Positions 11,471 to 58,339 of a stretch of 64,000 nt of DNA are shown in pieces; the stretch's first letter is position 1; each line of letters starts with the position of its first letter. Origin of the DNA: a virus. The position numbers were made by a program, and so were the translations under genes. The notes below the pieces were generated by a model that was not told the DNA's origin, ran no database searches, and saw only the letters and a program-made list of their open reading frames with translations. The DNA lies in IMG/VR virus record IMGVR_UViG_3300023109_000018; one strand, given 5' to 3'.

Positions 11471-12017
11471 TATGTTTTTGTTCCTCAAAAAATCCAAATT
11501 TTGCTATGTAATAGGCATCAATGATATCACTGATGGGGTTCCAATTCTTAGGGGACATTATATCAAGTCTAGCTCGAATGTCAACCCCTGTTTCAGCAAT
11601 AAATGCATCATACATCATTTCTTTACTGGCGTTACCTTTACCAGTGGCAAATTTCTTAATTACAGTTGGAGCAGGAATCTCAAACGGAATACCACATAGC
11701 CACAGTCGCTGTTTTAGGTAACCACCATTCTCAGCTATATTAAATACACGCCCAACAGCGCCAAATGCGTATCCCTCAATATAAGCATGCGTAACGTCTC
11801 CGTAGAACATGATGTCAAGGGACCAGGCTGAGAGGTTTTCGTATCGTTTTTGATCACAGTCCCACTCGGGGTAGTCATATCCAATGAATTCTTGTCCGTC
11901 GAGCTGTTTCTTCTTCCTGAAGAAATGGAATCTACAGTTTTCATATTTCCATTCAGCTCCGGTATGTACACAAATTGCAGGACTCGTTAAACTATAGTCC
12001 ACTCCAGCTATCACCAT
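11454..12017 (-). CDS. RuvC-like nuclease/resolvase
   Basis: AGVDYS, IEGY, KKFATGKGNA, DIIDAY catalytic pattern. Confidence 0.75.
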   Translation of the reverse strand: MVIAGVDYSLTSPAICVHTGAEWKYENCRFHFFRKKKQLDGQEFIGYDYPEWDCDQKRYENLSAWSLDIMFYGDVTHAYIEGYAFGAVGRVFNIAENGGYLKQRLWLCGIPFEIPAPTVIKKFATGKGNASKEMMYDAFIAETGVDIRARLDIMSPKNWNPISDIIDAYYIAKFGFFEEQKHNDTDL

Positions 12018-13494: not shown

Positions 13495-13944
13495 TTAACG
13501 CCCCATCCGAGATATTTCGGTTGCTTGTTCTTTATTAATAATGGGTACAGCATTGGATTTGTGCATAGTGCTGATTCCCTTCACTAAAGTACCCGTATAT
13601 TTTTGGGGTTCTTTTCTGGGCGTTGGGTTTGTTCCTCGTTGGTTTGAAGACGCATCATGTCTTTTCTGCGTAGGGCTTGCCGATGGGTAGTTTGGCGTTG
13701 GGCGCGTATACGGCTTGTGTTGCGTCTCATAGGGTCTAAATTCCTTTTTGATTTTTACATTTCCGTAGACATAATCTATATATTCAGCGAAGGTTCTTTG
13801 ATCACCGTGCATATGATTCTGGCGTAGGTGTTTATTGTCCTTAAGCCACTCCTTTTCGAGTTGGTTAAGCTTGACCTTGGTGATTTTAGGTTTGGGCTTT
13901 TTCGTGTTCAGTGACGAATAACCCTTCAATAAATGCATTGTCAT
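13495..13944 (-). CDS. conserved marine T4-like hypothetical protein
   Basis: YTGTLVKGISTMHKSNAVP C-terminal motif. Confidence 0.65.
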   Translation of the reverse strand: MTMHLLKGYSSLNTKKPKPKITKVKLNQLEKEWLKDNKHLRQNHMHGDQRTFAEYIDYVYGNVKIKKEFRPYETQHKPYTRPTPNYPSASPTQKRHDASSNQRGTNPTPRKEPQKYTGTLVKGISTMHKSNAVPIINKEQATEISRMGR

Positions 13945-13954
13945 AATAAAATAC

Positions 13955-14128
13955 CTAAAACATTGAAATCCTTTTTTCTAAAATTTCGATCTCGGCATCC
14001 TTACGGGCCTGCCACTTCTCTTGTGTACGGGCAACACCTTTTGCGTTGACCTTTTCAAAGAACTTAGACTCTTTAAGGCGAGCCAATGCACCTTCACGGC
14101 GCGTACGATCTGTAAATCTACCTCTCAT
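13955..14128 (-). CDS. small Arg/Lys-rich protein (57 aa, MRGRFTDRTRREGALARL...)
   Basis: Translated by hand; SD AAGGAG 5 nt upstream of ATG. Confidence 0.7.
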   Translation of the reverse strand: MRGRFTDRTRREGALARLKESKFFEKVNAKGVARTQEKWQARKDAEIEILEKRISMF

Positions 14129-14147
14129 AACTTCTCCTTATTAAAGT

Positions 14148-14211
14148 GAGTGATACGGGATCCATATTACCATTTTTCGGGGGTAAAGGCAGGTTCACCA
14201 CCGTATCACTC
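14148..14211 (-). ncRNA. unassigned structured element, copy 1
   Basis: Perfect 11-bp closing stem GAGTGATACGG/CCGTATCACTC; core shared with copy 2. Confidence 0.55.
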
Positions 14212-14222
14212 GTCCCCTGTAG

Positions 14223-14420
14223 TTATACCTTGATTTCATCCTTTGTTAAGGTGTCTCTGATCTCAATAATCGTATTTTTCAATATGTCATGATGTACACG
14301 ATCTTCGTCTATGATAATGATTCTATCACTAACAGGATTGTTGAAAGCGGCTAGCATACTACCGACAACCTCGTAGACTACATCTTTCTTTTTCCAGTGG
14401 TGATAAGTTACATGAACCAT
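14223..14420 (-). CDS. hypothetical protein
   Basis: 65-aa ORF between the two structured elements. Confidence 0.6.
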   Translation of the reverse strand: MVHVTYHHWKKKDVVYEVVGSMLAAFNNPVSDRIIIIDEDRVHHDILKNTIIEIRDTLTKDEIKV

Positions 14421-14439
14421 ATTGGTACCTTGAATTAAG

Positions 14440-14503
14440 GAGAGAGCCGAGTCTTATATGGCCGTTTTCGGGGTATATGGCAGGCTCACCACCCGGCATC
14501 TCT
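14440..14503 (-). ncRNA. unassigned structured element, copy 2
   Basis: Closing stem GAGAGA(T)GCCG/CGGCTCTCTC; same length and core as copy 1. Confidence 0.55.
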
Positions 14504-14531
14504 CGCCCCCTTGTTCGCAAATTAGAATGTA

Positions 14532-14560
14532 ATTATAACATGACTAGTTGGAATTGTCAA
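14532..14560 (-). promoter_or_regulatory. sigma70-type promoter
   Basis: TTGACA-N17-TATAAT directly upstream of copy 2. Confidence 0.85.
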
Positions 14561-14563
14561 CAA

Positions 14564-15004
14564 CTAAATGAACTCTGTTTCAACTCCTGCCTCGACAAAT
14601 AGATTGAGTGATTTGGAGTACGCAGCTACCCATTTCTCTGGTATCTCTCCAGCAGTTGCCATCACAACTCTTTTGATACCAACCTGAATAATACCTCTCG
14701 CACAATCATTACAGACAGGTAGACCCCAAACATATATCGTGGAATCTTTCAATGAAGTTCCGTTATATGTGGCATTATATATTGCATTCATTTCCGCATG
14801 AATGACATGATCGTACTTAGTTGGCTTATCAGCGTATCGTTCGGGTGAATCCTCAATACCTTTAGGAAACCCGTTGTAACCAGTAGCGAGGATTCTGCGA
14901 TCGTCATCTACGATTACTGCCCCAATCTTCATGCTGGGGTCCTTAGACCAGGTAGAAATCTCTCGGGCTAGGCTTACAAATCTCTTGTCCCACTTAGTAG
15001 ACAT
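14564..15004 (-). CDS. cd: dCMP deaminase
   Basis: SKDPSMKIGAVI, GYNGFP, HAEMNAI, PVCNDC zinc motifs. Confidence 0.92.
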   Translation of the reverse strand: MSTKWDKRFVSLAREISTWSKDPSMKIGAVIVDDDRRILATGYNGFPKGIEDSPERYADKPTKYDHVIHAEMNAIYNATYNGTSLKDSTIYVWGLPVCNDCARGIIQVGIKRVVMATAGEIPEKWVAAYSKSLNLFVEAGVETEFI

Positions 15005-15478: not shown

Positions 15479-15507
15479 ATTATAGGCTACTTTGCGCCTG
15501 CTGTCAA
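15479..15507 (-). promoter_or_regulatory. sigma70-type early promoter
   Basis: TTGACA-N17-TATAAT followed by the CACATAAATTGAG leader. Confidence 0.85.
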
Positions 15508-29176: not shown

Positions 29177-29205
29177 ATTATAATACAAACTCATATGATT
29201 GTCAA
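29177..29205 (-). promoter_or_regulatory. sigma70-type promoter
   Basis: TTGACA-N17-TATAAT upstream of primase-thyX-nrd operon. Confidence 0.8.
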
Positions 29206-50562: not shown

Positions 50563-50591
50563 ATTATATCAGGATATGCATACAATGTCAA
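50563..50591 (-). promoter_or_regulatory. sigma70-type promoter
   Basis: TTGACA-N17-TATAAT upstream of gp33. Confidence 0.8.
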
Positions 50592-58262: not shown

Positions 58263-58339
58263 TGGCCGACCCAGTAGGACTCGAACCTACAACCTACAGC
58301 TTAGAAGGCTGTTGCACTATCCGATTGTGCTATGGGCCG
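58263..58339 (-). tRNA. tRNA-Arg(UCU)
   Basis: Full cloverleaf, anticodon loop CTTCTAA, TTCGAGT T-loop, encoded CCA. Confidence 0.95.

Follow-up and report, generated by a model that had tools for sequence, protein, structure and literature searches.

The DNA analysed here, called the window throughout, is the whole stretch of 64,000 nucleotides (nt) from IMG/VR virus record IMGVR_UViG_3300023109_000018. It belongs to a large T4-like virus with topoisomerase II subunits, ribonucleotide reductase and a DnaB-type helicase; this phage has no close cultured relative. Between 13700 and 14800, its minus strand carries a promoter (14560-14532), a small RNA element (E2), an open reading frame (ORF) of 65 amino acids (aa), a second copy of the element (E1) and a basic ORF of 57 aa, called orf57. 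The initial annotation had given the same order, and reading of the minus strand confirmed it. Our analysis revealed that E1 and E2 are true paralogous copies of one uncatalogued RNA, predicted to be folded and kept by compensating mutations. The features of the locus are listed below, with scores from covariance model (CM) R1, which was built from six copies of the element.

14532..14560, minus strand: sigma-70 early promoter, TTGACA-17-TATAAT, perfect consensus (12/12) with TG extension
14438..14511, minus strand: E2, 74 nt, CM R1 score 78.5 bits
14223..14420, minus strand: 65-aa ORF, seen only in the window's own clade
14146..14218, minus strand: E1, 73 nt, CM R1 score 93.7 bits
14135..14238, minus strand: segment of about 104 nt that holds E1, exactly absent from the related locus L119, with the direct repeat AAGGA at its bounds
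13955..14128, minus strand: orf57, 57-aa basic protein with the conserved pattern RREGALxRLK...FFEK...WQxRKDxEIEILEKR

E1 and E2 share 79% column identity in the alignment, and the blocks GGGGRCGAG, GGTGGTGARCCTGCC, CCCC, AAAA and GG are invariant between them. The 15-nt core occurs exactly twice in the 64-kb window, against 0.05 occurrences expected, and the 64-nt core of E1 folds better than shuffled sequences (z = -4.5). Each copy had been described as exactly 64 nt long; since the conserved 5' G-run belongs to the element, the unit starts there and measures 73–74 nt. The closing stems of the two copies differ in sequence yet pair, as had been stated, and their lengths are 11 base pairs (bp) in E1 and 12 bp plus one bulged U in E2, not the 11 and 10 given before. 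The element is strand-specific, with 14.7 bits on the reverse strand compared with 93.7 bits (CM R1). At least 10 contigs, drawn from several samples, have the window-type locus without change, and the phage is seen in at least 21 contigs. At L200:2548-2575, TAATTCAA is duplicated in tandem between the E2 orthologue and the Shine-Dalgarno (SD) site of the 65-aa ORF.

The helices P1, P2 and P3 and a second pseudoknot are located in the two copies as follows.

E1, minus strand: P1 5' strand GGGG, 14217-14214
E1, minus strand: P2, 14211-14201 with 14158-14148, 11 bp
E1, minus strand: P3, GGU 14199-14197 with GCC 14190-14188, loop GAACCU 14196-14191
E1, minus strand: C-run 14183-14179 and A-rich linker 14178-14172
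E1, minus strand: pseudoknot-2 strand GGU 14171-14169, pairing with ACC 14194-14192
E2, minus strand: P1 5' strand GGGG, 14510-14507
E2, minus strand: P2, 14504-14492 with 14451-14440, 12 bp plus bulged U
E2, minus strand: P3, GGU 14490-14488 with GCC 14481-14479, loop GAGCCU 14487-14482
E2, minus strand: C-run 14473-14470 and A-rich linker 14469-14464
E2, minus strand: pseudoknot-2 strand GGC 14463-14461, pairing with GCC of the P3 loop

The comparison of the relatives supports this fold. In alignment A5 (11 rows), 96% of the cells fall in standard pairs. Nine pairs are changed on both sides, compared with 3.0 +/- 1.3 in column shuffles (none of 500 reached nine), and a slid control, in which the partners were moved by 1–3 columns, gave 0–1 such pairs. 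The earlier claim of a functional structured RNA whose stems covary around an invariant core is thus borne out. The GAG/CUC base of P2, the closing stem of 11–12 bp, is invariant, and above it nearly every pair is exchanged in the divergent relatives L132 and L133; the E2 orthologues L171, L194 and L200 carry a change of G.U to A-U in P2. P3 is GGU/GCC, and GGG/CCU in L133. Pseudoknot 2 joins the 3' portion of the P3 loop to the bases that separate the A-rich linker from a conserved AUAU. Extracted by script from the member sequences, as were the other helices, its pairs are CC/GG in most members, ACC/GGU in E1, GCC/GGC in E2, GCACA/UGUGU in L132 and ACACC/GGUGU in L133. Because the pseudoknot-2 positions are fixed, the two independent 5-bp matches are very unlikely to have arisen by chance, at about (6/16)^5 each.

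The 5' G-run and the internal C-run (GGGG/CCCC) make P1 a plausible helix of 4–5 bp, invariant but for one change of G-C to G.U. A spacer of 4–5 nt follows P3, and the A-rich linker that follows P1 is 5–8 nt long. The strand order P1, P2, P3, P1', loop pseudoknot, P2' supports a predicted nested double pseudoknot. Upstream of the G-run nothing is conserved, and the preceding base varies (A, G or U). The initial annotation had read CCCGAAAA as an inner hairpin kept in both copies and likened its GAAAA loop to lambda boxB. The relatives read CCCCCCAAAAUGG, CCCCCACAAAACGG and CCCCCGCCAAAACGG at this place, the G of GAAAA is replaced in L163, L164, L189 and L184, and the flanks pair over just 2 bp. 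The CCCGAAAA stretch is better read as a putative A-rich linker between two pseudoknot helices. Other candidate features were set aside: a 9-nt identity of the P3 region to helix 45 of E. coli 16S rRNA is at about chance level and is lost in lineage C, and a k-turn, a mini-ORF within the element and stimulation of stop-codon read-through were dropped, E2 and the L120 type having no upstream ORF.

Database searches placed the element outside known RNA families. Rfam 15 matched tRNA-Arg alone when the whole window was searched at the gathering score. In the region 13900-14620 it gave just two chance matches at E<=10, both elsewhere, and on the divergent members L132 and L133 and on the L119 locus it gave tRNA matches alone. 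This agrees with the initial annotation, which had recognised no known riboswitch or ribozyme. With the 57-aa protein as query, we found 16 IMG/VR loci, including L120–L123, where a copy of the element lies behind a perfect promoter and ahead of an orf57 homologue; the stem of these copies, GAGUGACACGG/CCGUGUCACUC, is a compensated change relative to E1. IMG/VR, the JGI metagenomes and the GTDB genomes were scanned with patterns for further candidates, and these were scored with CM R1; the CM E-values are rough owing to a shortened calibration, and a broader model is called R2. Full-length members scored 75–94 bits with CM R1 (9 IMG/VR and 8 metagenome loci), and chance matches reached at most 27 bits. 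A divergent form at L132–L134 scored 28 bits with R1 and 53–55 bits with R2.

The covariance search of viromes thus yielded a family of 10 distinct sequences, 73–84 nt long, from three lineages that are all uncultured phage contigs, and the covariation held among them. Related contigs of 39–170 kb carry one copy each and the window carries two. GTDB genomes and isolate phages yielded no member; the matches in a GTDB Tanganyikabacteria metagenome-assembled genome (about 26 bits) are partial, GC-rich and due to chance. An exact scan for the 15-mer core in IMG/VR hit at least 117 loci, nearly all by chance in GC-rich coding DNA, and L110, which resembles the element, was rejected for its coding context. 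Further contigs reached through identical orf57 proteins added no new sequence variants and one new context, L409. As judged from these searches, the element is confined to a small group of uncultured marine T4-like phages and to one locus, that of orf57 and tRNA-Tyr.

The element lies on the strand of the flanking genes in every case, and nine arrangements were found. In the list, P is a promoter, E the element, S a non-coding element of about 62 nt, orf57A, orf57B and orf57C are lineage variants, orf134 and orf745 are ORFs of 134 and 745 aa, and orf149 is a 149-aa ORF downstream of orf57.

L120 type: P-E-orf57A-S-tRNATyr-orf149
L409: orf134-orf57B-E-orf57A-S-tRNATyr-orf149
L189: orf134-orf57B-E-hairpin-P-orf745
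L164: orf134-E-hairpin-P-orf745
Window: P-E2-orf65-E1-orf57-orf149
L119, the closest relative: P-E2-orf65-orf57-S-tRNATyr-orf149
L211/L166: E-S-orf149
L184: gene-E-remnant of the orf57 start-strong hairpin with U-rich tail
L132–L134: orf57C ... E-UUUUUC-tRNATyr

The spacing around the element is tight. The G-run begins 5 nt after a stop codon in E1, 10 nt in L164, 1 nt in L189/L409 and 1 nt in L184, and 14–24 nt after the promoter -10 box in E2 and the L120 type. Past the 3' end of the element, an SD site comes after 8–12 nt or the 5' end of tRNA-Tyr after 6–7 nt. The initial annotation had placed the end of each copy just upstream of a translation start; this holds in the window, while elsewhere a promoter, a terminator-like hairpin or a tRNA comes next. 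The sequence comparison indicates that the element acts as RNA, in cis, in the sense-strand early transcripts of the orf57/tRNA-Tyr locus.

The window holds 16 perfect promoters of the form TTGACA-N16-18-TATAAT, against 0.1 expected, 14 of them on the minus strand; this points to a dense array of early promoters of the host type. Sites among the 16 include 1721-1749, 11557-11584, 15479-15507, 29177-29205 and 50563-50591. The element stands behind just one of the 16 and is therefore specific to its locus. A possible weak promoter ahead of E1, TTAACA-16-TATAAC (14249-14222), was not called by the promoter scan. The 65-aa ORF had no match in Pfam or PHROG.

Several contexts differ by gains, losses or joints at the element. 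L119 lacks the segment 14238-14135, and its 65-aa ORF overlaps the start of orf57 (ATGA). The E1–orf57 junction has its homologue in the L120 type, which indicates that L119 lost E1 and not that the window gained it. The window lacks tRNA-Tyr(GTA) and S (at 13944-13955), both of which L119 and L120 carry between orf57 and orf149; the tRNA left in the window is tRNA-Arg(TCT) at 58263-58339. The element S has a closing stem GAACCC/GGGUUC and a long imperfect hairpin followed by U5, and lies directly upstream of tRNA-Tyr. It is located at L119:3174-3238, with matching stretches in L120, L409 and L211, the L211 copy being without the tRNA. S has no Rfam match and looks like a terminator or attenuator. 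In L409:1-1300, from an ENA metagenome contig, two orf57 paralogues flank one element; the left arm resembles L189 and the right arm L120, and the two are joined at the element, which thus also marks a recombination joint and gives direct evidence that cassettes are exchanged there. Indels or joints at the element are found between the window and L119, L164 and L189, and L211 and L120, as well as in the L409 mosaic.

This behaviour is reminiscent of PeSL cassettes (Arbiol 2010; Comeau 2014), in which a short conserved intergenic sequence borders small variable ORFs in a T4-like genome; the element likewise coincides with indels and mosaic joints. In contrast, a PeSL consists of a terminator stem-loop and an early promoter and occurs in many copies, whereas the element is present in 1–2 copies, contains no promoter and has RNA-type covariation that includes pseudoknots.

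The orf57 protein has a net charge of about +7 and is predicted to form a helix-loop-helix hairpin (AF2 model, pLDDT 90). Its family (alignment A6) is widespread in the tRNA regions of marine T4-like phages, including Kyanoviridae C48C1, and no relative of orf57 was found in Pfam, PHROG, PDB sequences or Foldseek. An Atlas feature search proposed ribosomal protein bS21 (0.87); direct tests, by Pfam (PF01165) at E<=10 on 10 members, PDB profile search and Foldseek on the AF2 model, gave no S21 match, and the assignment was rejected. In most contexts, a gene or remnant of the orf57 family lies within 350 nt of the element. E1, L120 and L409 have it immediately downstream, as does L184 in the form of the remnant ATGAGAGG; L189 and L409 have it immediately upstream, and in L132–L134 it precedes the element by 140–340 nt. 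We examined 80 IMG/VR orf57 loci with CM R2 and an independent architecture scan (G-run, stem of at least 9 bp, enclosed C-run). The element was found within 1.5 kb in the three known lineages only, and about 70 loci were without it. In the complete genome of C48C1, orf57 adjoins tRNA-Tyr and the element is absent; the L164 and L211 contigs have the element and no orf57. The element is usually near orf57, yet orf57 is usually without the element.

Tentatively, we propose that the element may be a cis-acting, self-contained transcript-boundary module for processing or stability, a possible reading to which we give low confidence. The element is always placed exactly where a transcript or cistron begins or ends, and conservation sets in sharply at the G-run. 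Together with the compact double pseudoknot and the placement between coding sequences and tRNA, the abrupt start is a trait of small ribozymes, which makes a boundary module our best guess. In such a module, the 5' G-run and the internal C-run would form P1, P2 would close the body, and the P3 loop would pair past the A-rich linker. The element might then cleave the RNA close to or at its own 5' terminus, like ribozymes with such a topology; alternatively, it might be a knot impassable to ribonucleases. Either action would separate the adjacent segments of mRNA and tRNA and stabilise them. A by-product would be that phages exchange gene cassettes at the conserved 73 nt, which offer a homologous joint.

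Small ribozymes that cleave themselves and have a nested double-pseudoknot topology occur next to phage tRNAs (PMC10879173). The element shares with these ribozymes, the hepatitis delta virus (HDV)-like or delta-like group including the phage "theta" ribozymes, the strand order (P1, P2, P3, P1', P1.1, P2'), a double pseudoknot of 70–85 nt and conservation that starts at a 5' G; it likewise occurs in phages and, in one lineage, adjacent to a tRNA. In contrast, P1 of the element has 4–5 bp and theirs 6–7, its spacer between P3 and the P1 3' strand is 4–5 nt whereas theirs abut, and its A-rich linker (5–8 nt) precedes pseudoknot 2 whereas their P1.1 abuts P1. In HDV-like ribozymes, the first position of J4/2 is taken by a catalytic cytosine (PMC10879173), and the junction before the P2 3' strand of the element has no conserved cytosine. 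The element also lies upstream of the tRNA and theirs downstream, and no HDV-type model of Rfam matched it. We do not file the element as HDV-like, because P1 length, spacers and the missing catalytic cytosine do not fit. A new class of small catalytic (self-cleaving) or exoribonuclease-blocking RNA, with HDV-like topology and a different core, with which T4-like marine phages would punctuate mRNA-tRNA co-transcripts, is a doubtful proposal.

Several observations weigh against a transcript-boundary module. No known ribozyme family in Rfam matched the element. P1 never varies and is thus unproven by covariation, and the comparison is limited to 10 distinct sequences from three lineages. Among the members, no strictly conserved unpaired nucleotide fit for a catalytic base was identified; the C in the junction before the P2 3' strand is absent in L211 (AAAAUUGAGAA) and L184 (AAUAUGAAAA). 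The loss of E1 in L119, which shows no visible compensation, suggests that the element is dispensable at that spot. Furthermore, tight gene spacing is normal in phage genomes, and the boundary position may mean nothing.

A rather unlikely alternative, drawn from HK022, is a processive antiterminator in which the nascent element would bind host RNA polymerase and allow read-through of downstream terminators. In HK022, two RNAs of about 70 nt, put, antiterminate without any protein (PMC9378689). The window resembles putL/putR in having two cis elements of about 70–73 nt on early transcripts some 270–290 nt apart, one of them close behind a strong early promoter and the second about 290 nt on, past a small gene. 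Terminator-like hairpins lie downstream of the element in several relatives: S before tRNA-Tyr in L119, L120 and L409, S directly after the element in L211, and a 10-bp GC hairpin with a U-rich tail 17 nt past the element in L184. An invariant core with covarying stems would also suit docking on the surface of a conserved host enzyme. However, no sequence or structure similarity was found, as CM R2 gave at most 7 bits over the nun-cI-cro-cII (PL/PR) region of HK022 with filters off, and put consists of two stem-loops with a short triplex, unlike the double pseudoknot. The element occurs in a T4-like and not a lambdoid phage, is tied to one locus and follows only one of the 16 perfect early promoters. 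In the window, neither E1 nor E2 has a convincing terminator after it, and the gene that comes next in L164 and L189 is served by a promoter of its own.

It is unlikely, and conceivable for these lineages only, that the orf57 protein binds the element, which would then be a translational operator or part of an N/nut-type module. The adjacency of orf57 in most contexts and a layout like that of lambda PL-nutL-N-tL1 would fit a lineage-specific link between protein and RNA: the L120 type has a promoter, an RNA element, a small Arg-rich protein and the terminator-like S before tRNA-Tyr, the protein is basic with a predicted helical hairpin, and all four operons with an MRG(R/K)F-type orf57 have the element in the leader. 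The initial annotation had likewise paired the element with an N-type peptide, a proposal that we found poorly supported, as most orf57 loci are without the element and L119 has no E1 before orf57. Co-occurrence is not obligate, and C48C1 on the one side and L164 and L211 on the other each have one partner without the other. Moreover, the element of L189 is 3' of the gene and could not control its initiation. Unlike nut, the element has no 15-nt boxB hairpin with a GNRA-like pentaloop and no boxA, and its GAAAA is not conserved. The synteny of orf57 and tRNA-Tyr exists without the element and is older than it, so that the adjacency is accounted for by inherited position no less well than by functional pairing.

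We consider it improbable that the element is a stable small RNA, released from the transcript to act in trans as a decoy or guide like T4 rnaC/rnaD. Like these, it is a structured non-coding RNA within a phage tRNA region, lying in or beside the tRNA-Tyr locus and 6–7 nt from the tRNA in lineage C; it has a tRNA-like size, its long closing helix would protect it, and it is driven by perfect promoters. Nevertheless, no sequence or model similarity to T4 rnaC or rnaD was found, their 119–139 nt exceed its 73–84 nt, and it carries neither a terminator nor a processing signal itself; in lineage A it is directly followed by the SD site of the next gene. A riboswitch, in which the pseudoknotted core would bind a small molecule and control the downstream gene, is highly improbable. 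The strongly conserved core, covarying helices and compact pseudoknot are as expected of one, and the element lies in 5' leaders in three contexts, but there is no conserved expression platform, the SD site is not sequestered by alternative pairing, no Rfam riboswitch matched, and the downstream partners vary (orf65, orf57, tRNA, promoter, terminator), with no metabolic or transport gene among them. A sequence acting only in recombination at the DNA level, as a PeSL cassette or attC-like site with no RNA function, is the hardest to credit: indels and mosaic joints coincide with the element and PeSL-mediated shuffling is documented in T4-like phages (PMC2839356, PMC4122927), but the compensatory changes that keep three helices and a pseudoknot are sensible only for a single strand in one orientation, the reverse strand scores far lower, and copy number and promoter content set it apart from PeSLs.

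Our results thus describe an RNA family that is absent from Rfam and distinct from nut sites, put RNAs, PeSLs and T4 rnaC/rnaD, and for which a transcript-boundary module is the reading we prefer, tentatively. To our knowledge, about a dozen natural classes of small self-cleaving RNA are known, and RNA-only regulators of transcription or decay are very few. Most such RNA classes were first found as compact, pseudoknotted, conserved motifs in phages or metagenomes. At 73 nt, the element is short enough for direct testing, and its natural variants supply compensatory-mutation controls. The locus, with its small basic protein and tRNA-Tyr, is conserved across marine T4-like phages. Even if the element were a plain regulatory leader, it would document a conserved RNA as a joint for swaps of gene cassettes between phages.

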